Of a stretch of DNA of 64,000 bases, positions 4,857-60,194 are shown piece by piece (the stretch's first letter is position 1; every line of letters begins with the position of its first letter). A program made the translations under genes and the position numbers. Origin of the DNA: Eledone cirrhosa (lineage: Eukaryota); NCBI GenBank assembly GCA_964016885.1, contig OZ024743.1, positions 179,738,001 through 179,802,000 on the forward strand. Reading direction: 5' to 3'. The notes beneath the pieces are model-generated. The model saw only the letters and a program-made list of their open reading frames with translations. It did no database searches and was not told the origin of the DNA.

Positions 4857-4897
4857 TGCCTCCGACGAGCCCCTCTCGGCGAAACACGTGTAAGAGC
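4857..4897 (+). ncRNA. HHR-like motif in pLTR (CCGACGA core)
   Basis: CCGACGA gcc-cctctc-ggc GAAAC ACGT GTA agag; palindromic stem III; weak stem I. Confidence 0.55.
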
Positions 4898-6816: not shown

Positions 6817-7008
6817 AACGAGTAGTACCCCGACGGCTGAGCTCAAGCCGTTTCGACGGCTAATTCTGGGTCCAGAATTAGCCGTCGAAACGGCTTGAGC
6901 TCAGCCGTCGGGGTCCTACTCGTTCCTATTACCCACTCTACTACTCTAAGTATTGAGTACTTTGGTGCGTTATGGTCCACCTGGTTCCTTACCACATTTC
7001 CTTCGTTA
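6814..7008. mobile_element. fold-back fragment of an HHR-bearing pLTR within (TA)n
   Basis: Near-perfect palindrome 6814-6926; the arm matches 57585-57640 (GAAAC ggct..agcc GTC gggg, the 3' half of an HHR). Confidence 0.75.
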
Positions 7009-9099: not shown

Positions 9100-9268
9100 G
9101 AGGGAGAAAATCGATTAAATCAACCTCAGTGTATTACTGGAGCTTTATTTTATCGATCCAGCAAGGATAAAAGGCAAAGCTAACCTCGGCGAGATTTGAA
9201 CTCGGAACGTAAAGGGCAGTAACTCTATGATACGAAGCATACTGCCAATTCTGCCAATCCACCACCCT
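9100..9268 (-). mobile_element. tRNA-derived SINE family A
   Basis: TGGCAGAATTGG / GAGTTCAAATC boxes; ttttatcga..aaggcaaag body shared by about 15 copies in the window. Confidence 0.8.
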
Positions 9269-9585
9269 TATTTAGGTTCAATAATGTAACTACCTACCTA
9301 GGGCTGGTGCAACCCTCTTTCCTTTCAACTGTCACTTCCTGAATATTTCACTGGATTAAAGGGTGAAGGGTCAGGTAGTGTCTATATAAGCTGGCGTCTG
9401 TATGAGCACCTAAATCCCTTAGTGATTAGTGGCAGTATTAGTAGAGATATATTTTTTTATTGGTTTGCCTTTTCTTTAATGCTAGCTGTTTTCGTAATCT
9501 AGGCTATAAACTCTTCTTCCTTTAAACAATTTGTATTCAATATAGTTATCTATTTCCATATTGAATCTTCCGTGTGAACTGAGAA

Positions 9586-9779
9586 TAATAATTATTTCTA
9601 CTTTAGGCACAAGGCCAGCAATTACCCAGTACATTACTGGTACTTTATTTTATCGACCCCGTAAGGATGAAAGGCAAAGTCAACCTCGGCGGGATTTGAA
9701 CTCAGATCGTAAAGGGACGTAACTATGCTCGAAAGCATGTCGTCCGACTCTCCACCGATACTGCCAATCCACCACCGCC
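9586..9779 (-). mobile_element. SINE family A (short subfamily)
   Basis: A box TGGCAGTATCGG, B box GAGTTCAAATCC, ATT tail. Confidence 0.85.
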
Positions 9780-9932
9780 ATGAACTGAGAATAATAATAT
9801 TTCTCTATAAAATATTTAGGTTTTAGAATTCTTTTTGTGAAGCCAATGAACATCACTGAAATACTGCAGTTAATCTCAGCAAAGATTTTCAAGCTTATCT
9901 CATTTATATGCCATTCACCTTCTCTCTATTTA

Positions 9933-10117
9933 CAATAATTGTTTCTACTTTTGGCACAAGGCCAGCAATTATCCCAGTGTATTACTGGTACTTTATGTTA
10001 TCGACCCTGTAAGGATGAAAGGCAAACTTAACCTTGGCGAGATTTGAACTCATATCATAAAGGGGCGTAACTCTATGCTGCAAAGCATGGCGTCCGACCC
10101 TCTACCGATACTGCCAA
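9933..10117 (-). mobile_element. SINE family A (short subfamily)
   Basis: Near-copy of 9586-9779. Confidence 0.85.
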
Positions 10118-10324
10118 TAATGATGGTCAGATTTTGAGAATCACGGATGTCAAAGATATCAAAAATTCTTTTGCATTTTTTTAAAATACATAATACAATT
10201 TAGGAATACTAATCCACCTTTCATACAATGACTGAATACAGTGTATCTCAATACATCAGTCATGTGGTGTTTAGTTAATATGTATTTGAGATGTTTGTGG
10301 GCTTATGTATTTATCTATATAATA

Positions 10325-10515
10325 TAATTGTTTCTACTTTTGACACAAGACCAGCAATTATCCCACTGCATTGCTGGTACTTTATTTTATCGACCCCGTA
10401 AGGATGAAAAGCAAAGTTAACTTCGTCGGGATTTTAATTCAGACCGTAAAGGGTTGTAACTCTATGCTGCAAAGCACGGCGTCCGACCTTCTACCGATAC
10501 TGCCAATCCACCGCC
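10325..10515 (-). mobile_element. SINE family A (short subfamily)
   Basis: Near-copy of 9586-9779. Confidence 0.85.
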
Positions 10516-10661
10516 CGGCATAATATGTAGTATTTCTATTAACATTTTCACATATTTCTGTGTTACTAGTGGTTTCAATATGAAAAAACATTTACATGCA
10601 TGCGCACTTACATACAAACGTATATAAGTACGCATACATGCATACTTATACACACAAAGCA

Positions 10662-10850
10662 GGTGGTATGGCAGATATCGGTAGAGGGTTGGACGCCATG
10701 CTTTCTAGCATAGTTACGTCCCTTTACAGTCTGAGTTCAAATCCCGCCGAGGTTAACTTTGCCTTTCATCCTTACGGGGTCGATAAAATAAAGTACCAGT
10801 AATCTACTGGATAATTGCTGGCCTTGTGCCAAAAGTAGAAACAATTATTA
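10662..10850 (+). mobile_element. SINE family A (short subfamily)
   Basis: ggtggtatggcagatatcggtagag..gagttcaaatcccgccgagg..gtgccaaaagtagaaacaattatta. Confidence 0.85.
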
Positions 10851-11019
10851 CTTGCTGAAACAGATTAGGTTAGACCTTTCATGTCGGGATACTGTACGAT
10901 TTTAAATCTCATTGGATGAAGAGAGAATGTAATGTTTCATGGTTAATGAAATATCTTTTTTTACTACAGAATAAAATTGATGCGTTATAAAAATAAAAAT
11001 AAAAATGAAGAAATCGTTA

Positions 11020-11180
11020 TTAAGTTACGCTCCTTTACGTTCAGATTAATTCTAGCCCTATATGTGTCGACATTGTATTTAGTATCGATAAAATAACTGT
11101 TTGTAAATTATTGGCGACCTAATTGACTATAACTCTCTCACAATAAATTTGTTCTAGTGTGCCAAAGAAAAGAACATTAG
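11020..11180 (+). mobile_element. SINE family A, highly degenerate
   Basis: cctttacgttc, tcgataaaataa and gtgccaaa..agaa remnants. Confidence 0.4.
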
Positions 11181-11504
11181 TTGTGGTTTCCTATCACTTT
11201 TCACTTACCGAAAATAGAGTTTATACATTTACTTACACCATATTCCCGGGAATGAGATAGATGTATTCGATCCACGACTCTTTTCGACTCGGTTCATTCT
11301 TGTTCTGTAATATAAAAAAATGATGCATGCATGGTCCCGTAATACCTGAGTCATAGGGGCACCGTATTGACACGCGGTGTTTCTAAGGCAGTTTTTAAAC
11401 CTGGTGGAGCCCATCTCCACACCATGTCTGAATACAGTAGCTTTCTCCCAGACAAGGATAGAGAGAGTGAAAGAACGGACGAGAGAACCTGATATAGCGG
11501 AAGA

Positions 11505-11620
11505 ATTGGCTGGTACGTTTTTTATCGACCTCGAATGAATGAAGTCAAAGATGATCCGGCGGGATTTGAACTCAGAGAACAGCGAGCAGGAACTAATACC
11601 GCTAAGCATTCTACCCGATG
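11505..11620 (-). mobile_element. SINE family A, partial
   Basis: ctggtac..tttatcgacc..ggcgggatttgaactcaga. Confidence 0.6.
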
Positions 11621-11880
11621 TTCCAACAACTATACTATTTGCCGCTTACTATAAAGAAGATATAACTTTTATAATGAAAAGAAAAGGAGCGAATTTAACT
11701 GTTTTAAACAACCAAAATCGAGCTTGTATTTATACATTATTTTGTCATATGTCTTCTAACCCTTACCAACCATAAATTATATATGTGTATATATGTGTAC
11801 GTATATGTATGTATATATGTGTGTGTATATTAAATAGATGTATAAATATGTATATATATGTGTGTATATATATATATATA

Positions 11881-11945
<65 letters not shown>

Positions 11946-12612
11946 ATATATATAAGGCCAGAGAATAAAATGAGAAGGAATTTCCTTAAAGGCGAGGTGG
12001 CGGAGGTTTATAGAATTGCCTTCGACCGGAAATTAAGACCCGCCACAAACCAGATCTTTATACCTATGTGTGTGTTTGTGTGTATCAATTCAACATTGTG
12101 GGCGTCTGATGTTTGTATTTATCCTTCGCCTCCAAGAGTAATCAAAACATCCATCTTATTTAAGACGCTTCAAATGTATTGTTTAAACTCTATATTACAA
12201 TACTGTGCTATTCCAACATATCCAAACCAGAGTTTAGCGTCCCGCCATGTGTAGAAAATGTCAACAAAGGGAATTTTCTTGCGTTTAGAAATTTCTTATT
12301 GAGATATATTTTATTGGCTGATCGAATATATCCAATAGTATTCAATATATGATTGATTGTATTGACTGTCGGCGACGATCTTCTGTCTTTCATTAGAACA
12401 TCTATATATATATATTCTCTCAAATCCACAATATTATTTATAGCATAAGAATAGTTTATACATTTTCGTAAAGCTGCAATTAAGTTTTTGGTTTAACATT
12501 AGATAAACTATCATATTCTACGACAGTGTGTCTTGTCAATCTGTCTTATGCGAAGACTCGCGTTCATATAACTTCTTTTGTAAAATTTGCTAGCGCCACT
12601 AATTTTATTGAG

Positions 12613-12833
12613 AGTGGTAAATTGGCAGTATCGGTAGAGCGTCGGACAGGATCCCTTGTCGTATATAGTTACAGCCCTTTACGTTCTGATTTCAAATCCC
12701 GCCGTGGTTAGCTTTGCCTTTTATCCATACGGAGTCGATAAAATAAAGTACCAGTAATGTACAGAGGTCGATTTATTCGACTTTCAGTTCCTTCAAATTT
12801 GTTGGCCTGGTGCCTAAATCAAAAACCATTATT
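12613..12833 (+). mobile_element. SINE family A (long form)
   Basis: A and B boxes, body, ATT tail; tandem with the next copy. Confidence 0.85.
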
Positions 12834-12842
12834 ACTGAGTGC

Positions 12843-13062
12843 AGTGGATTGGCGGAATCGGTAGAGCATCGGACACCCTGCTTCGTGGCATAGACTTACA
12901 GTCGTTTACGTTCTGCGTTTCAAATCCAGATGAGGTTAGGTTTGCCTTTCATCCTTACGGAGTCAGTTAAATAAAGTACCAGTAATGCACTGGGGACGAT
13001 TTAATCAACTTCCAGTTCCTCCAAAATTGTTGGCTTTGTTCCTAAATCAGAAACCATTGTTA
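12843..13062 (+). mobile_element. SINE family A (long form)
   Basis: Second copy directly after 12613-12833. Confidence 0.85.
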
Positions 13063-13064
13063 TT

Positions 13065-31517: not shown

Positions 31518-32153
31518 AGGATGAATATAAAATGAAAGTGCTTTTGTTAAAAAAGGAATTTATTAGGTATTGACATATGTTTCTGTAACAGACCGAATAC
31601 CTATGTATCGCTGCTTGCGTAATCATATAATGTTAGCAAGTATTCGATAGCAAATGTATAATCAGTTGTCACTTCTTCAGAGATTTTGGATAAACTGGAT
31701 AAAATCAGAAAAATTGAAGTATTTATATTAGTAAAAGAGGAAGGAACAGAGGGGATAGAATATGACAGATGGTAAAATAATTTACTGCTAAACAAGTATA
31801 TAATGGGTTTTTAATGAGAATACCATGAGTAAATCTAAATAAGAATTTTGGGGATGCCGATTTTAATCTCTACTTGACCAACTGGAGAGTGGACAGGGCT
31901 GGTCATTTGGTGCAGTAGTATTAATCATAAAGTGTCAATTGGGGAAGGGGGAGATTTCGATTGCTACTAAATAACATCAATGCTAGTAGTCAGCTGGTAT
32001 TTGCACTAGGGAATTGAATCAAAAAATCAGAAATCTCATTTTATCTATAGCAGTTTGTATTAAAAGGTAAATAATAGAAGAGTTGATAGAATTAAGACTA
32101 ATAAAGAATGTTCATATCTATTTTGACAATCAAACGGGGATAGAGACAGGCGT

Positions 32154-32679
32154 TCAATCCTGGTAGTATTTATAATATGAAAATGTAGATTTTAAGCGAT
32201 GGTTACAGTATAACGATCGCTCTATTCTGTTATTTAATAAAATGTTTTTGGATTTCATAATACAAAATAATTCTACATTACATAATCTACAAAATTCCTG
32301 TCCATTGGAATATGGGGGGGCAGTCGCTATTATATCCCATTTTAGGTGAAATTGTTGGTTATTTTCACGCAGCTGCCAAGCCTTGTCTGCGAGTGTTGTT
32401 ACATAACGCTGGTTTTCATGTTTTATCGAATAACGATGTCTATAAAGGCGTGATTTAAAGGAGGTGGCTGTAGATCCCACATAGTACCACTTCTGTCTAT
32501 CCGATTCGATAGTACATTTGTATACGATGTTGCGTTCAAGACACTGATTGTTCAACGGACACATTCCTGGTTGGACACAGTTGCAATTACAATTTTGCGT
32601 TGTTGTATTGCCATGGATGGGTTGATGAGGTTGCTTATGTAGGACAGGATGTTGTTTGTTGTTTTGTGATGTTATAGCT
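32154..32679 (-). pseudogene. inverted duplicate of the GIY-YIG region
   Basis: Translation identical to the C-terminus of the 33095-34543 ORF. Confidence 0.9.
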
Positions 32680-34543
32680 TAAAAACATCAACAACTCGGC
32701 ATGTGATATTGTTAAAAAACTTTGTATTGACGATAGAACGCAACCCTTAACACCAGCTATACCATCCTTCAACCTGAAGGACCACAAGGTAAACTTCGAT
32801 ACTAACCCAAATATTAGACTTATATGCCCCTCTAAATCTGATATAGGTAAAATTAGCAAATATATACTAGACAGAATTATCCCCCAAGTTAAAGTTAAAG
32901 TAGAGATTAAACTATGGGGTAACACTCATGAAGCAATAAGATGGTTTAACAACATTACTGATAAGAAAAAATCAAAATTTATTCAGTTTGATATTGATGA
33001 ATATTATTCCTCAATTTCACCTGATACTCTACATGAAGCTCTTTCGTTCGCTAAGGATAATTCCGACCTTACGGATGCTGAAATTAAAATTATTATGGAA
33101 GCGAGAAAAACTATAGTTAAATTCGATGATAGCTACTGGGTTCGCAAAGATAGACCTTCTAATTTTGATATCACTATGGGTTCTAATGATTCGGCGGAGG
33201 TAACAGATCTTGTGGGAATTTATATCACCCACAGATTACAAGGAAAATTCAAGGATCTCCACGGTGGAATTTACCGTGACGATGCGCTCCTATTAGTTAA
33301 GAATATGAATAACCAGAATTTAGAAAGGATGCGTAAAAATATCAGAAAACTTTTTAAAGAACTAGGATTAAATATTACATTTGAATATAACCTCAAAGAG
33401 GTCAATTTCCTTGATGTTACTTTCAATCTCAATACAGATACGATTAAACCGTTCCATAAACTAAATGAGAACCTTAAATATGTAAATACGAGTTCTAACC
33501 ATCCACTCTGTATAATTAAATCCATCCCTAGAAATGTTTCTCTTAGAATCTCCCGCCTATCCTCCAACCAACAAACCTTCAAAGAACATGCCGAGTATTA
33601 TGATGATGCACTTAGGAAAGCCGGTCACCTAGATAATATAGAGTATATAGTCAATGATCACCAAAACACCCAAAATAAATCACATAGGAGTAGAAATAGC
33701 ACAGAATCACCACCATACATACACTACCGCAATAGACACAATAATAGTCGCACACCACCAAACAGAAGGCGATGTAAGGAGTATATCTGGTACAACCCGG
33801 TCTATAACAAATCTATTAAAACCAATCTACCCTCAAAATTCTTTCGATTAGTTAGAAAACACTTTCCAACATCACATAAATATAATAAAATCTTAAACCC
33901 TAACACCATCCGACTTTCATATTCAACCGCCCCTAATATTGAACAACATATAAAAATGCTTAACGCAAAACGGTTGTATAAACGCCTTCCAACACATAAC
34001 AATACACGTAAAACATTAGCTATAACATCACAAAACAACAAACAACATCCTGTCCTACATAAGCAACCTCATCAACCCATCCATGGCAATACAACAACGC
34101 AAAATTGTAATTGCAACTGTGTCCAACCAGGAATGTGTCCGTTGAACAATCAGTGTCTTGAACGCAACATCGTATACAAATGTACTATCGAATCGGATAG
34201 ACAGAAGTGGTACTATGTGGGATCTACAGCCACCTCCTTTAAATCACGCCTTTATAGACATCGTTATTCGATAAAACATGAAAACCAGCGTTATGTAACA
34301 ACACTCGCAGACAAGGCTTGGCAGCTGCGTGAAAATAACCAACAATTTCACCTAAAATGGGATATAATAGCGACTGCCCCCCCATATTCCAATGGACAGG
34401 AATTTTGTAGATTATGTAATGTAGAATTATTTTGTATTATGAAATCCAAAAACATTTTATTAAATAACAGAATAGAGCGATCGTTATACTGTAACCATCG
34501 CTTAAAATCTACATTTTCATATTATAAATACTACCAGGATTGA
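32678..34543 (+). CDS. Naiad-type PLE RT + GIY-YIG; frame open from the inversion junction, N-terminus missing
   Basis: LKDHKVNF..RLICPSKSDIGKISK, FIQFDIDEYY, FDITMGSNDSAEVTDLVG, YRDD, NFLDVTF, WYNPVY, CNC..CPL..C, YVGSTATSFKSR. First ATG at 33095. Confidence 0.92.
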   Translation, partial: LKNINNSACDIVKKLCIDDRTQPLTPAIPSFNLKDHKVNFDTNPNIRLICPSKSDIGKISKYILDRIIPQVKVKVEIKLWGNTHEAIRWFNNITDKKKSKFIQFDIDEYYSSISPDTLHEALSFAKDNSDLTDAEIKIIMEARKTIVKFDDSYWVRKDRPSNFDITMGSNDSAEVTDLVGIYITHRLQGKFKDLHGGIYRDDALLLVKNMNNQNLERMRKNIRKLFKELGLNITFEYNLKEVNFLDVTFNLNTDTIKPFHKLNENLKYVNTSSNHPLCIIKSIPRNVSLRISRLSSNQQTFKEHAEYYDDALRKAGHLDNIEYIVNDHQNTQNKSHRSRNSTESPPYIHYRNRHNNSRTPPNRRRCKEYIWYNPVYNKSIKTNLPSKFFRLVRKHFPTSHKYNKILNPNTIRLSYSTAPNIEQHIKMLNAKRLYKRLPTHNNTRKTLAITSQNNKQHPVLHKQPHQPIHGNTTTQNCNCNCVQPGMCPLNNQCLERNIVYKCTIESDRQKWYYVGSTATSFKSRLYRHRYSIKHENQRYVTTLADKAWQLRENNQQFHLKWDIIATAPPYSNGQEFCRLCNVELFCIMKSKNILLNNRIERSLYCNHRLKSTFSYYKYYQD

Positions 34544-35012
34544 ACGCCTGTCTCTATCCCTGTTTGATTGTCAAAATAGATATGAACATTCTTTATTAGT
34601 CTTAATTCTATCAACTCTTCTATTATTTACCTTTTAATACAAACTGCTATAGATAAAATGAGATTTCTGATTTTTTGATTCAATTCCCTAGTGCAAATAC
34701 CAGCTGACTACTAGCATTGATGTTATTTAGTAGCAATCGAAATCTCCCCCTTCCCCAATTGACACTTTATGATTAATACTACTGCACCAAATGACCAGCC
34801 CTGTCCACTCTCCAGTTGGTCAAGTAGAGATTAAAATCGGCATCCCCAAAATTCTTATTTAGATTTACTCATGGTATTCTCATTAAAAACCCATTATATA
34901 CTTGTTTAGCAGTAAATTATTTTACCATCTGTCATATTCTATCCCCTCTGTTCCTTCCTCTTTTACTAATATAAATACTTCAATTTTTCTGATTTTATCC
35001 AGTTTATCCAAA

Positions 35013-35129
35013 ATCTCTGAAGAAGTGACAACTGATTATACATTTGCTATCGAATACTTGCTAACATTATATGATTACGCAAGCAGCGATACATAGGTAT
35101 TCGGTCTGTTACAGAAACATATGTCAATA
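35013..35129 (+). ncRNA. candidate type I HHR with ~90-nt stem II (inverted copy at about 31570-31685)
   Basis: CTGAAGA a gtgaca..tgttac a GAAAC ATAT GTC; stem I pairing is poor. Confidence 0.55.
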
Positions 35130-35285
35130 CCTAATAAATTCCTTTTTTAACAAAAGCACTTTCATTTTATATTCATCCTTTCTACATTTCTCCGGAATAT
35201 AATTTATACTCGTTGAGCAAACCTGCACGTACGCTGTTCATCTCTAACGTAACGATATATTATCACTACATTATTGATAACCTGA

Positions 35286-39416: not shown

Positions 39417-39733
39417 CATATATATATATACATATATATATACATATATATATTTATATACATATATATATATACATATATATATATATACATATATATA
39501 TACATATATATATATACATATATATACATATATATATATATACATATATATATACATATATATATATATACATATATATATACATATATATATATACATA
39601 TATATATATATACATATATATATACATATATACATATATATATACATATATATATACATATATATATATATACATAAAATATTAAACAAATAATGAACAA
39701 ACAATTCCTTATATTAAACAAAAAAAGTTCACT

Positions 39734-39876
39734 ATTTAACGATCGTTTCTAGGGTATATATGTGTTATAATTGGTATGCATATTCAACAGATCTATGTAC
39801 AAAATTATACAAAATTATACAAATTATCAAGATTAAATATACATACCTAACACATATATACGCCGTCTTCAGAAAT
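39734..39876 (-). ncRNA. type I HHR with ~115-nt stem II (3' pLTR)
   Basis: Same motif as 48297-48439. Confidence 0.8.
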
Positions 39877-40710
39877 AATGAAGTATATTTATTGATAATA
39901 ACAACAATTCAAAATATCAGTTCAAAATTGACCAATGAAAACACAAAGGGTTAAAAGCAGTTTGGTGTGTGTATATACATGTAAAATCCTTACACATATT
40001 TTACAATAATGTGTGTATAATTTGTATGTGCATACTAAAAAGATGGATGCAAACACAAAATTTCAAGGTTAATATCTCTGTAAGCTTAATGCGCTGATAA
40101 GATGCGCAATGATACTTATGGAGTCAAGCATATAAATATATTTTTTTCATACTCACACATATCAGTATAATCACACATACATGCGCGTATATGCATAAAT
40201 ATACACATAACCACGAACATACAAACACACACACTCCCCCACTCACATTTATATATGTGGATATAAAATCATAAGCAAATAGAAATTAAGTCACTCACAT
40301 AAAACACTGGCACACACATTTCAAGATCAAGATACAGAAATTAGGTGGGAGGGGGGGGAGGGGTCAGTATTAGATTGTCAGAGCAGACTGCCTAATATAA
40401 ATGTATCTATAAATTAAGAAAAATAAAAAAATAAAAAAATAAAAACAATAAAATATAATAAATATAATATAATGTACATACACATACAGATATACATACA
40501 CATACATACATGAACGCGCACATAGAGATATTTACGCATACACACATACACACATACGTATACAGTCATACACACACATACACTTACACGAACATACACA
40601 TACACATATAAAAAGATATATATACACACACACACACGCGCAACACATACACACATACACATATATATAAAAAATAGATAATAAAGATATATATCCATAT
40701 ATATATATAT

Positions 40711-40773
<63 letters not shown>

Positions 40774-40868
40774 TATACACATACATACCCATACATCTAA
40801 ATATACATACACATACATACACACATACATGTATATACATGTACATACATATACGCACATCGATATAC

Positions 40869-40924
<56 letters not shown>

Positions 40925-41264
40925 TCACATAGACATAAAGATACATACACACACAACTTACATACACACGCATATATATATATATATATATATATAGATG
41001 TACCTTCATAGATAGAATTAGATATATAATCATACATACATATGCACCTACTTATACTCATATAAATAAATACATACGCTTCCATATATGTGTATACACA
41101 TAAAAAACAATACCACCTCACCAAACTCAGACATACAAATGAAAATAATAATAAAAAAACGCATATGTATATACATACACACACGCATTAATAGAGATAT
41201 ATATATATACACACATACATACACACACATACATATACATACACACACACATACATACACATAC

Positions 41265-41317
<53 letters not shown>

Positions 41318-41324
41318 TAGACTC

Positions 41325-41355
<31 letters not shown>

Positions 41356-41659
41356 AACATATATATCCACACACTCATACCACCATAAATACACATACAA
41401 ACACCCACATGTATATATATATATATATATCCACATACACACACGTATACATATATATATATATACATATACACATATATATGTATATATACACACACAT
41501 AAAAAACAGACATGCACATATATATATATATATATATATTTCATTACTCTTATATATACACATAGTATATATACATACACAACCTCACTTATATACATAT
41601 ACACATAAGTTATATTACAATAATAATAAAGAATAATATATATATACATATATATACAT

Positions 41660-41692
<33 letters not shown>

Positions 41693-41812
41693 TACATACA
41701 TACACATACATACATACACACAAATATATACATACATAAATACACACATACGAATAAAGACATATATTCACACATAGACACCTATATACATATATATATA
41801 TATATATATATC

Positions 41813-41860
<48 letters not shown>

Positions 41861-43584
41861 CACACACACACACACACACAGACACACATACACACTCACA
41901 TATATATATATATATATGTGTATGTGAGTGTGCGCACATACACATATATACACACACACATACAAACACACACAAACACATACATATGCATACGTGCACA
42001 CACACACACATATATCACATAGATACGAAGATAAACATATAAATAGAGAGACATACAAATATATACACAACACATATACACATACATACATACACGCATA
42101 TACATATACATACATATATACACATATATATATTCCTATATACAAGCATACACATACATACACATATATACATATACATACACATATACATACCACACAT
42201 TCACATACACATACATATATAATACATATATATACATATATATACATACATATGTATGTACAATCATATATACACACTCAATCTTACATTCATATTTACA
42301 TGCTCATATATGTATTTTTATATTTAGAAATAAATACCAAAACCTATATAGACACCCACCTACATATATATTCATACATATATGCTTACAAATACAGATG
42401 ATAATAGTATGGGGGAAAGGGGGGGTTTGGAGAAGGGGATCAAAGTAAATATATGTTTCAAGAAACATATAATATTTTCCGTATCTTAATTCAATGTATG
42501 CTCTTACATATTTTCAGTGCTAGGAAATACGAAATCTATGCATCTCAAAATAAATAAGTATACCATTAATCACATGTTAACTAAACCAAAGATAGTCAAC
42601 ATATTGATTTCTAAGGTGTAAATTAGTTAGGTTTATAATATTTGAAGCAGAATTATGAAGTCAAACAGTAGTAGATTATTAATTACATTATAACTAAATT
42701 AAAGTTAATAACGTTATGGTATCAATATTAGGAGATGAATTTAGTAATAGGGAAAAGAAACCCAAATAAAAATAAAATAAAGTATTACATCGGTAGTAGC
42801 ATATAAATTATATGTTAACTAAATTAAAAATTATATATTTATTTCAATAGTATACGTTAATTAGTATATGTTAATTAGGTATACAATACATAAAGCAGAT
42901 ATTGTATTTCATCAATAGCATAATATAATTATATGCAAATAAAAATCAAAATTAATACGCATACATATACATATACATACACATACACATATACATACAT
43001 ATACACACATATATATATATATATATACATATATATACACACATATATACATATATACACACATAAACATACATACAGATACACATACACAACACACACA
43101 TATACATATACATATACATATACATATCTTTTTCAAAAAATTGCACAGAATATATTAACTAGGTATATATCCAAAACACATCCCATTCTATGATTACATG
43201 ACATTCTGCAATTCGTCTGTACAAGGATACTAATTTTAAGCAAATTAAAATTAAAGTTTTAGGTTGATTAAAACTAAAACCAAATAATAAATATATTTCC
43301 AAAATGTATATTAATTAGGTCTATAATACTAAAAATTCTTTCTCCGTCATTGGATACATGATATTATTTTGTTATATTTTATCTGTAAAAGAATTATAAT
43401 AAAAAGGTTTAAATAAATTAAAATTAATCTATAAATTAAATTACTGAGTATATATTAGTAATATTTAAAGGTTTTTCAAAATTTATGATTACATAATATT
43501 TTCTCATCTGTAATAAAATATTAATTAAATTAAATTTATAGGTTAACTAACATTTAAATTAAATTAATTTCTAGAATAATGTTA

Positions 43585-56608: not shown

Positions 56609-57640
56609 GCTGCCCTTTGGCCCCTTGTAGCCTTAGTACCCCCACCCCCTCCCCTAGTCTATGATAGATTTGGCGGACTCCGCCCTTTATAGCAGTTGGT
56701 TTAGACCCCGGATACTTGTCCCCTTTTTCCGACCGCTCCCACTATTCTCTGTGCCCTCTATATTTCTTAGTGGCACTTATGCCTTATTTTTTCGTTTCAG
56801 TATTTCTTTCTTCGCTTTTCTTTTGGGCGGCGTGGATTCTGAATTTATTTTTCCGTATTCTACCTTTACTTCGTACGAACTTTCATGTAGCTTGTTTTAG
56901 ATCTTTTAGAGTTAGCATTAGCAAATATTTTTCTCGGGACTCAGAATTATTATCTCGTACTAGTTCACTTTGCTGCACTGGGTCGTTGCTGGCCCGGGAT
57001 GGAAACCTTTATTGTTTATTTCGTGGTAGTCTCTTTAGTATTTTGGCCCCTTTTGTTGACCCGTCACCGTATCATTTACGTACTTATACCTCTTAAAAGG
57101 GTCCTTGCCTAACTCGTCCCACCTAGTTCTTTTACTTATTTCGTTATTTCTTTATTTCTTTCTTTACTTCTTTCTTTCTTTATTTATTTATTTATTCTAG
57201 CCTAACAATAGCTAGAGACCTAGGTCGTAGAATTTACTTTACTTTTTTCTTTACACTAATTTGCTTTTCTTCACTCTCAGTATTTTTTCTTTCCTATATA
57301 TTTCTACCCCCCATTGTTCTACCTACCGTTCCTACTTCCTCCCCCTCCCCCTCCCCTGTATCTTCTTTGACCTCATGCCCAGCTGTAGCTGCCACTACCA
57401 ACGCTTGATTGGGTCTACTCCACCCCCTCCCCTCTTTCTCCTACTGGCAGGTTTAGCCACCATCTCCCTAAACTAATTTGCAACCACAGAATTACTACTG
57501 ATTTTTGACAATCACTTTGACCATATATGGAATTACCCCTTGAGAAGATCGGCTATTTAAATACCAGGATAAATTTTCATTTAGTCCAGAATTAGCCGTC
57601 GAAACGGCTTGAGCTCAGCTGTCGGGGTCTTACTGGTTCC

Positions 57641-57642
<2 letters not shown>
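56609..57642 (+). mobile_element. PLE pLTR-like non-coding element with terminal HHR, within (TA)n
   Basis: HHR at 57536-57627; same family as the 6814-6926 palindrome. Confidence 0.6.
57536..57627 (+). ncRNA. type I HHR, U3-A8 variant
   Basis: cccc TTGAGAA ga(t)cggcta..tagccgtc GAAAC ggct-tgagctc-agct GTC gggg. Confidence 0.7.
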
Positions 57643-57682
<40 letters not shown>

Positions 57683-57687
<5 letters not shown>

Positions 57688-59559
57688 TATGAAGAGAGAA
57701 GAAACATTTAGATATAATTGGTAATAAAATGTATCATACCTAAACTGCTCCTAAATTCCTCGACTACGTAGTTTCGTGGCATAAACAAAAACAATATATC
57801 AAAGATATAGAGTCCTTGCGAGGTCTGCCAACTTATCAAGAGGATACCTCATTTTACTAGTCTCAAGAACGCGTCTACACGACGTGAGAAAGAATCCCAA
57901 AAGGCGGAGGGGGAGATAGTCACGCGATATAACGGTCGAGAAACAGAGCTAAGCCTCTTATAACCACGAAGAAAATACCACGGAGGCGGAGGGGGTATTC
58001 ATATCGAGGCCGTAGAAGAGGTAGTGAAGAAGGCGAGAAGTACGAGTAATGGAAGCTTTCCAGTTGTCCCCACACTTCAAAGATTGCTCGACCAGAGGGA
58101 GTTATTAATATATTTAGAAACACACAGATACATGCGGACACACACATATATACATGAATGCATCCGCACCCAACTGCGAGTTAAGGGTGCCAACTTCACC
58201 GATGTTGCTCAATGAATGACTGGGACAGACCAATTCAGTTTGAACCAGACTGAACCAGTATCAGAGTTAAAAATACATTATGAAGAGAGAAGAAACATTT
58301 AGATATAATTGGTAATAAAATGTATCATACCTAAACTGCTCCTAAATTCCTCGACTACGTAGTTTCGTGGCATAAACAAAAACAATATATCAAAGATATA
58401 GAGTCCTTGCGAGGTCTGCCAACTTATCAAGAGGATACCTCATTTTACTAGTCTCAAGAACGCGTCTACACGACGTGAGAAAGAATCCCAAAAGGCGGAG
58501 GGGGAGATAGTCACGCGATATAACGGTCGAGAAACAGAGCTAAGCCTCTTCTCGACCGTTATATCGCGTGACTATCTCCCCCTCCGCCTTTTGGGATTCT
58601 TTCTCACGTCGTGTAGACGCGTTCTTGAGACTAGTAAAATGAGGTATCCTCTTGATAAGTTGGCAGACCTCGCAAGGACTCTATATCTTTGATATATTGT
58701 TTTTGTTTATGCCACGAAACTACGTAGTCGAGGAATTTAGGAGCAGTTTAGGTATGATACATTTTATTACCAATTATATCTAAATGTTTCTTCTCTCTTC
58801 ATAATGTATTTTTAACTCTGATACTGGTTCAGTCTGGTTCAAACTGAATTGGTCTGTCCCAGTCATTCATTGAGCAACATCGGTGAAGTTGGCACCCTTA
58901 ACTCGCAGTTGGGTGCGGATGCATTCATGTATATATGTGTGTGTCCGCATGTATCTGTGTGTTTCTAAATATATTAATAACTCCCTCTGGTCGAGCAGTT
59001 TTTGAAGTGTGGGGACAACTGGAAAGCTTCCATTACTCGTACTTCTCGCCTTCTTCACTACCTCTTCTACGGCCTCGATATGAATACCCCCTCCGCCTCC
59101 GTGGTATTTTCTTCGTGGTTATAAGAGGCTTAGCTCTGTTTCTCGACCGTTATATCGCGTGACTATCTCCCCCTCCGCCTTTTGGGATTCTTTCTCACGT
59201 CGTGTAGACGCGTTCTTGAGACTAGTAAAATGAGGTATCCTCTTGATAAGTTGGCAGACCTCGCAAGGACTCTATATCTTTGATATATTGTTTTTGTTTA
59301 TGCCACGAAACTACGTAGTCGAGGAATTTAGGAGCAGTTTAGGTATGATACATTTTATTACCAATTATATCTAAATGTTTCTTCTCTCTTCATAATGTAT
59401 TTTTAACTCTGATACTGGTTCAGTCTGGTTCAAACTGAATTGGTCTGTCCCAGTCATTCATTGAGCAACATCGGTGAAGTTGGCACCCTTAACTCGCAGT
59501 TGGGTGCGGATGCATTCATGTATATATGTGTGTGTCCGCATGTATCTGTGTGTTTCTAA

Positions 59560-59563
<4 letters not shown>
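57683..59563. mobile_element. 591-bp non-coding HHR unit: ~1.5 tandem copies plus ~1.7 inverted copies, within (TA)n
   Basis: Period 591 (57683/58274); inversion at about 58549; copies near-identical; four HHRs; no meaningful ORF. Confidence 0.9.
58648..58733 (+). ncRNA. type I HHR, U3-A8 variant (also 59239-59324 plus; 57758-57843 and 58349-58434 minus)
   Basis: cctc TTGATAA g t tggca..tgcca c GAAAC TACGTA GTC gagg. Confidence 0.82.
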
Positions 59564-59607
<44 letters not shown>

Positions 59608-59611
<4 letters not shown>

Positions 59612-60123
59612 AAGTTTTATTTAAATTGTTGGGTTACAACGAGTAAATATTTATAACTGATATAAAAGCACTCAACAAGTATTTGGAGTATATTTACGAT
59701 ATTAAATAAATGGAAACTATATTTATAAAACCATATTTATTTCATTATATATATTTCAGGGATATCAAATTAAAAATATGGTATGCCTTCATCAGACAAA
59801 ATACAATATAAACAGTCTTATAAATAGATAGATTTGACATACCTTACAACTTCAACTTCCATTTAAAAAGTTGATTTGGTAAATAGATAGATTTGACATA
59901 CCTTACAACTTCAACTTCCATTTAAAAAGTTGATTTGGTACCAAATCAACTTTTTAAATGGAAGTTGAAGTTGTAAGGTATGTCAAATCTATCTATTTAT
60001 AAGACTGTTTATATTGTATTTTGTCTGATGAAGGCATACCATATTTTTAATTTGATATCCCTGAAATATATATAATGAAATAAATATGGTTTTATAAATA
60101 TAATTTCCATTTATTTAATATCG

Positions 60124-60125
<2 letters not shown>
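59608..60125. mobile_element. fold-back pLTR remnant of the 28415-31457 Naiad family
   Basis: Palindrome 59697-60124 centred on tttggtaccaaa (about 59939); ~59-bp tandem duplication in the left arm; CTGATGA agg..cct GAAA at 60025-60066. Confidence 0.8.

Positions 60126-60194
<69 letters not shown>

Follow-up and report, generated by a model that had tools for sequence, protein, structure and literature searches.

The window, by which we mean the whole 64,000-nt stretch of Eledone cirrhosa DNA analyzed here, is a nest of many Penelope-like elements (PLEs) in (TA)n. Comparison of the window with itself delimited, at 57682–59567, a single insertion of approximately 1.9 kb between two (TA)n runs (left target flank, 57641–57684; right target flank, 59560–59608), for which a preliminary description had given boundaries of 57683–59563. 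The insertion consists of a left arm on the minus strand (57682–58550; 869 nt, or 1.47 units) and a right arm on the plus strand (58549–59567; 1,019 nt, or 1.72 units), which meet head to head at 58549–58550 in a 2-nt overlap (TT) common to both. Within the unit, the 5′ ends of the arms are 17–19 nt apart, so that the tip of the hairpin comprises a 6-nt loop and a 3-nt bulge. At its sense 3′ end, the left arm meets the left (TA)n 80 nt past C17 of a hammerhead ribozyme (HHR), with 3 nt in common, and the right arm meets the right (TA)n approximately 241–247 nt past C17, its last ~8 nt being compatible with the microsatellite too; AT letters are common to the target at both of these ends. A tail of approximately 160–167 nt (59401–59567, plus strand) occurs at the right end only and marks a putative second reverse-transcription start, after PMC11167929. 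A target-site duplication cannot be read because both flanks are (TA)n. The self-comparison found one insertion of this element in the window.

The period is exactly 591 nt in both arms, and the unit junctions are identical. The tandem overlaps are also identical (278/278 and 428/428), and 2 of the 850 nt aligned between the left and right arms are different (0.24%). The near-identical copies of the preliminary description were thus recovered, as was the tandem and inverted layout, but the arms do not consist of whole monomers. The two arm differences (58998 and 59000 versus 58084 and 58082) are both transitions with a spacing of 2 nt, which hints that they derive from two variants of the template and did not arise later as independent mutations; with respect to RNA editing, either direction of change amounts to one A-to-G and one C-to-T on some strand. 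When 15 pairs were compared, 9 of them non-coding, the divergence was the lowest among the non-coding pairs, in agreement with an earlier ranking of the unit as the youngest non-coding one, although it was inseparable from that at 59614–60117 (1/179). One coding unit had less arm divergence (1/1159): the 5′-truncated Hydra-like element at 31521–35283, whose 1,159-nt inverted arms, with 1 difference, show less divergence than any other pair in the window.

Fold-back during assembly or amplification could also generate an inverted structure of this kind, here an 850-bp palindrome that is nearly perfect and closes on a 6-nt loop. However, the unequal arm lengths, the separate (TA)n junctions at different unit positions, the 2 substitutions, the match of the 160-nt tail to the internal copy, and the occurrence of the same layout in units whose arms have diverged by 8–14% make such an artefact highly improbable. 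Simple fold-back copying of one cDNA was rejected, as the right arm extends ~160 nt past the end of the left arm and the loop is found in the left arm only. Twin priming on one RNA occurs in L1 and may be an alternative origin of inverted arms, but the ends at this locus do not abut, with gaps of about 150 or 330 nt.

From cut site to cut site, the predicted 591-nt monomer occupies 58730–59320 on the plus strand (42% GC, with structure on the sense strand only) and, in the left arm, 57762–58352 on the minus strand, 2 substitutions from the right-arm monomer. The reported lack of an ORF was borne out: the circular monomer contains 6–14 stops per 197 codons in all six frames, its longest ATG-started ORF is 75 amino acids, and the RT plus GIY-YIG ORF of an autonomous PLE is absent from the unit. 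PLE coding remnants were sought with 65 homologues of a local PLE ORF and 7 window ORFs as queries, which gave only a short antisense match (best E, 0.022), with a profile of the same sequences, which gave no match, and with 3 GIY-YIG relatives (best E, 0.88). The monomer is 63% paired in its predicted fold. As a linear molecule, the sense strand had a folding z-score of −5.5 (0/100 shuffles as good), versus −0.5 for the antisense strand (28/100); the circular sense monomer scored −7.3 (40 shuffles), with 20 control folds between −2.9 and +2.6. Such a strong fold does not imply a circle because 2 of 10 other PLE-end regions (15 shuffles each) matched or exceeded it, a coding Hydra 3′ region with −5.4 and another unit with −7.3, and because the score of the monomer body without the HHR falls to −3.3. 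When folded as a circle, the monomer is predicted to engage both strands of stem I in other pairings, an arrangement that would shield the circle from re-cutting.

Four identical type-I HHRs were located in the insertion. They lie in the right arm at 58647–58734 (U3, 58652; A8, 58657; C17, 58729) and 59238–59325 (U3, 59243; A8, 59248; C17, 59320) on the plus strand, and in the left arm at 58348–58435 (U3, 58430; C17, 58353) and 57757–57844 (U3, 57839; C17, 57762) on the minus strand. The preliminary description had claimed four U3–A8 HHRs, forming one same-strand pair exactly 591 nt apart on each strand, and the C17 positions agree with it. Each HHR has U3, A8, a 5-bp stem I, a GUC site, and the type-I core (N3-UGA-N-N8-A, GAA, A15.1–U16.1, and H17, with a 3–8 Watson–Crick pair). 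Helix II, 57 nt in all, starts with a G10.1–C11.1 pair, followed by a bulged U, 5 bp, and then an extension, and helix III is a 10-nt palindrome that gives 3 bp in a single HHR and 10 bp in a dimer. Helices I, II, and III can form, the constrained folds lying 1.6–19 kcal/mol above the free fold depending on the context. Folding probabilities of the HHR core were low in the folding model, which included no active-ribozyme control, and were not counted against activity.

A relaxed HHR descriptor matched 14 times in the window, whereas 40 block-wise dinucleotide shuffles yielded 0.175 matches on average and at most 1; a motif of the U–A palindromic class was present in 0/40 of them. A strict descriptor missed all four HHRs because of the helix II bulge, and the relaxed one missed several others, so the set was curated by eye. 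Rfam gave no hammerhead match at the gathering threshold in the whole window, the other HHRs included, or at E ≤ 5 in 57500–60150, and the HHR assignment therefore rests on the descriptor and published core numbering. Sub-threshold Rfam matches to microRNAs and other families were set aside as mostly generic hairpins or AT repeats. The curated set comprises 17 HHR motifs at element ends (14 C3–G8, 3 U3–A8, and none mixed), a split that is weak evidence of covariation because the search patterns favored both classes. A second U3–A8 HHR family occurs at 56611–57638 and 6819–6922, with a 19-nt helix III region and an end ~20 nt past the cut site. Hydra-like HHRs in which C replaces U4 occur in two different elements (35649–35550, minus strand; 4862–4892, plus strand), reflecting either decay or a tolerated variant. 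In the coding PLEs of the window, the core is C3–G8 in 6/6 cases, not U3–A8. File S2 of Craig 2021 reportedly lists Hydra HHRs.

The U3–A8 core has precedents in Schistosoma PLEs, in the S. mansoni Cercyon elements (PMC4209133), for which dimeric action, low activity, close opposite-strand HHR pairs, and the idea of a circle template have already been described. Like the Cercyon HHRs, those described here combine U3–A8 covariation with a 5-bp helix I, a long helix II, and a palindromic 15.2–16.2 region for dimeric action. They differ in that helix III is not of the minimal form, having two pairs beyond A15.1–U16.1 and a tetraloop, and in that G10.1 directly follows A9, with the bulge placed within helix II.

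The coding PLEs of the window include an intact 816-amino-acid ORF on the minus strand at 43585–46035. It carries the motifs RWR, DKT, CxCx5C, YRDD, and YIG, of which the first three are diagnostic of the Hydra clade (PMC8557442), and 65 of 7999 candidates scored were homologous at E ≤ 1e-10. Pfam assigned it 0 families, with only a sub-cutoff GIY-YIG match among the window PLE ORFs, so its clade assignment rests on the motifs and the 65 homologues. Four further Hydra-like coding fragments match the same proteins, the motif check covering the 816-amino-acid ORF. We propose the product of this ORF as a candidate helper enzyme for the 591-nt element. The surrounding region, 39683–48630, appears to be a complete, young Hydra-clade PLE encoding a candidate active enzyme; it has a period of about 6.65 kb, a very long microsatellite-rich 3′ region, and an inverted arm that is 0.32% diverged.

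The window also contains short units with a PLE-style layout and no listed ORF, at 588–1422, 22226–23240, 17181–17889, and 49065–49716, with periods of about 315, 658, 618, and 524 nt, respectively; the first carries a U3–A8 HHR, and no HHR was found in 17181–17889. Another PLE clade is represented at 25828–27374 by a GIY-YIG fragment with minimal HHRs on both arms; the best match of this fragment (26418–26885) is an Octopus bimaculoides protein (57% identity), which makes an octopus host likely. A truncated 3′ end of the 28417 family at 59614–60117 forms a perfect 120-nt palindrome with no loop and contains a 59-nt direct duplication that suggests a template jump. Among other repeats, 42 copies of a 74-nt satellite (99% identity) at 50523–53635 adjoin a 200-N assembly gap region near 49.8–50 kb. 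Many copies of a SINE-like repeat of about 150–230 nt, which we take to resemble an octopus SINE, occur at 9108–21763 and 53954–54137.

The arrangement of the 591-nt element corresponds to what has been reported for PLE insertions, namely a partial tandem, an adjacent inverted 5′-truncated copy, a tail at one end, and a (TA)n bias (PMC8557442), with head-to-head junctions containing palindromes (PMC3846280). All of these occur here, including a microsatellite target with (TA)n on both sides, and the same layout is found in the coding PLEs of the window, five of which match Hydra-like proteins. The preliminary description overlooked that this layout is the standard PLE integration signature. 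At the same time, the unit is non-coding, has a GC content below 50%, is extensively self-paired, and presents two HHRs 591 nt apart in each arm; at the sequence level, it has the features of a non-LTR retrozyme. The locus is therefore probably one recent insertion of a non-autonomous PLE of the non-LTR retrozyme type, with a 591-nt non-coding unit trans-mobilized by a PLE RT/GIY-YIG protein.

The locus might instead be the 5′-truncated 3′ end of a long autonomous U3–A8 PLE that was locally duplicated by a template jump. The local Hydra-like 3′ UTRs are long (about 0.7 to several kb), so that missing coding sequence proves little; a jump duplication of 59 nt is present at 59821–59940, and a 1-kb U3–A8 3′ fragment adjoins the locus at 56611–57638, the T-rich upstream part of which, also 1 kb, may be the 3′ UTR of an autonomous element outside the view. 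Nevertheless, both arms carry an identical 591-nt period and identical unit junctions, so the 591-nt unit was present in the template before integration, and the sequence past the HHR runs back to the next HHR without an ORF. We consider a truncated autonomous element quite unlikely.

If the locus is a non-autonomous PLE, its mobilizing protein most likely belongs to the (TA)n-targeting Hydra clade, which we offer as a suggestion because the first end exceeds the local Hydra range and no sequence is common to the two. The first end lies 80 nt past C17, outside the local Hydra range of 43–61 nt. The (TA)n target and the tail length fit a dependent of a Hydra element, although other clades also use (TA)n in the sources available: the 161-nt tail falls among the local Hydra-like tails of 107, 140, 169, and 170 nt (89 nt in a related truncated end) and resembles these more than it does the tails of the other units measured (58, 39, and 62 nt). 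When the monomer was aligned with the 17 other units in the window, 0/17 aligned convincingly, the best alignments (z, 3.0–4.8) lying in AT-rich or C-rich stretches, and no autonomous partner with common sequence emerged. Against five coding Hydra-like ends and one related truncated end, all from the window, the z-scores ranged from −0.8 to 0.4.

Like the Hydra-clade PLEs (Craig et al. 2021, PMC8557442), the 591-nt element has a (TA)n target, an HHR near its 3′ end, and a partial tandem, inverted copy, and tail, and coding members of the clade occur in the same window. It differs in having no ORF, no detectable identity to the local Hydra ends, and a U3–A8 rather than a C3–G8 core. Its tail of about 160 nt is also long compared with the 30–40 nt given for PLEs generally (PMC8557442), whereas the local Hydra-like tails span 89–170 nt. 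Non-autonomous PLEs are known in Chlamydomonas (PMC8557442, PMC9977147). In the available descriptions, the Chlamys PLEs MRC1 and Chlamys-N4 are, like the 591-nt element, non-coding PLE dependents with microsatellite targets, pseudo-LTRs, and head-to-tail copies. Unlike it, they are algal, mostly lack HHRs, and have 3′-end sequence in common with a known autonomous partner, which was not found for the 591-nt element in the window.

We envisage integration as follows. A source copy would give rise to RNA exceeding one unit in length, be it a concatemer left uncleaved or a ligated circle around which copying proceeds more than once. [quoted passage not shown] By analogy with this biochemistry, which comes from Poseidon, a different clade than Hydra, the enzyme would cut both (TA)n strands, and each 3′ end would prime a cDNA at one of two AT-rich start sites, ~80 and ~245 nt past the HHR cut site. 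Two HHR sites lie intact within each cDNA of the insertion. A linear monomer released by cleavage could therefore have served as the template only if the RT jumped from end to end; the sequence is compatible with monomers linked by such jumps, with a circle, and with a concatemer that had remained uncleaved. Finally, the two cDNA ends, which show the 2-nt overlap, would be joined by microhomology into the head-to-head hairpin.

Of the head-to-head junctions, 6 have both of their references inside the window; 4 of these show an overlap of exactly 2 nt (58549, 23209, and 49624, identified automatically, and 1061, identified by eye), and 2 show no overlap (about 6870 and 47670, both by eye). Two junctions in 59614–60117 were excluded from this tally because their references are not independent. 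For random joins, the probability of an overlap of at least 2 nt is 0.155, and that of at least 4 in 6 is about 0.007 by a hand calculation, a post hoc figure from few junctions. The 2-nt overlap may be a signature of how PLE ends are joined. Overhangs of 2 nt are left by some GIY-YIG homing endonucleases, and connecting the junction overlap with these is speculation.

On the RNA side, release of a 591-nt monomer by the HHRs would require a transcript free of the opposite arm. Release upon transcription from either direction had been expected, and each arm, with two HHR sites around one unit, could in principle achieve it, as reported for non-LTR retrozymes. However, when the whole insertion is read from either flank, it is predicted to form a ~850-bp hairpin of about −1700 kcal/mol, in which both sense HHRs are entirely paired with the opposite arm (88/88 nt); this is an equilibrium prediction, with the arms contiguous from the 6-nt loop. 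Because such read-through RNA buries both sense HHRs, release is restricted to RNA starting near the center, and only transcripts starting in the 180–200 nt between the center and the first HHR are predicted to escape the hairpin. Two GC-box-like repeats and a TATA-like word, seen as motifs only, occur near the arm starts. The unconstrained fold of the isolated dimer (58640–59330) already includes helix III in its crossed 10-bp form together with a crossed stem I, that for the cut at 59320, and the double hammerhead lies 6.2 kcal/mol above the ensemble, compared with 10.8–19 for the single forms. In the full right arm, the order is reversed (14.6 for the double form versus 8.7 kcal/mol for the single forms), and formation of one stem I is opposed by a competing small hairpin. 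We favor a double hammerhead, formed through the 10-nt palindromic helix III, as the most likely mode of HHR action.

There is an even chance that the 591-nt element makes no circular RNA, the template being an uncleaved linear concatemer with weak or late HHRs, and read-through RNA folding into a long hairpin and entering small-RNA or editing pathways without yielding a monomer. Being limited to the RNA step, this alternative does not conflict with the identification of the locus as a non-autonomous PLE. PLE-type HHRs cleave weakly (PMC4209133), cleavage by a Poseidon PLE HHR needs the protein of the element, HHR mutants left PLE insertion in vitro unreduced, and unprocessed RNA was the main substrate, with 0 reads ending at the HHR site (PMC11167929). 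Of nine Xenopus retrozyme dimers, eight remained uncleaved in vitro and one was cleaved (bioRxiv 10.64898/2026.07.22.740005). The predicted 850-bp hairpin at the locus points the same way, as does the fact that local coding elements also show copies of more than one unit, such as that with a period of ~6.65 kb at 39683/46334. Circles are favored, in contrast, by the perfect 10-nt palindrome of helix III and by the double form already present in the fold of the isolated dimer. In addition, abundant retrozyme circles have been reported from mussel, coral, and axolotl (PMC7229834). We rate the chance that the 591-nt element family makes circular RNA in vivo as slightly below even, and it is unlikely that the locus at 57682–59567 itself yields a monomer or circular RNA. 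Divergent RT-PCR, which had been suggested as a check, cannot reveal a circle because, on linear RNA or DNA with tandem copies, divergent primers also converge, from one copy to the next.

Non-LTR retrozymes are tandem non-coding repeats with type-I HHRs that form circles in coral, mussel, and axolotl; PLEs have been proposed as their helpers (Cervera and de la Pena 2020, PMC7229834), and Li et al. derived retrozymes from PLE pLTRs (bioRxiv 10.64898/2026.07.22.740005). As far as these sources describe them, metazoan non-LTR retrozymes resemble the 591-nt element in being non-coding, with GC below 50%, one type-I HHR per unit, at least two consecutive HHRs, a short palindromic helix III, and high predicted self-pairing. 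They differ from it in core and helix II, the 591-nt unit having a U3–A8 core and a 57-nt helix II. At 591 nt, the unit is longer than the retrozymes of invertebrates (170–400 nt) and lies inside the 51–972 nt of a broader survey (PMC7229834; bioRxiv 10.64898/2026.07.22.740005). Whereas retrozymes form head-to-tail arrays, the 591-nt element forms partial tandems in two inverted arms in (TA)n, and the available text of the same two sources does not describe inverted arms for retrozymes. Circular RNA has been seen for retrozymes in animals and is putative for the 591-nt unit.

In Octopus vulgaris, 31 recently active PLE families with 336 recent insertions have been reported, and ribozymes are not mentioned in the available main text on these PLEs (PMC13282606). 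Literature on cephalopod retrozymes, octopus PLE hammerheads, and PLE twin priming, covering few subscription journals, yielded no description of the 591-nt family among the records listed. Non-autonomous PLE retrozymes, U3–A8 cores, and tandem or inverted insertions have already been published, and the 591-nt element is not a new class.

A more far-reaching interpretation, which we regard as tentative and rather unlikely as a whole, is that the element represents a cephalopod retrozyme family in which a U3–A8 double hammerhead makes a 591-nt circle and the integration scar records mobilization by a Hydra-clade PLE enzyme: priming on both target strands would have occurred at two fixed sites, copying would have exceeded one turn, and the cDNA ends would have been joined with a characteristic 2-nt overlap. 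If true, this would provide structural evidence for the link between retrozymes and PLEs, which, in the sources available, is otherwise based on pLTR homology and co-occurrence, and would make the 591-nt RNA and the 816-amino-acid ORF available as a substrate–enzyme pair. Since the 591-nt unit is small, nearly unmutated, and protein-free, with two mapped starts, a predicted double hammerhead, and an intact Hydra-clade ORF 12 kb away, it is a convenient test substrate for how PLE-type elements move. It bears on the role of HHRs in the PLE life cycle and on circles as templates for transposition (PMC8557442, PMC11167929, PMC7229834).
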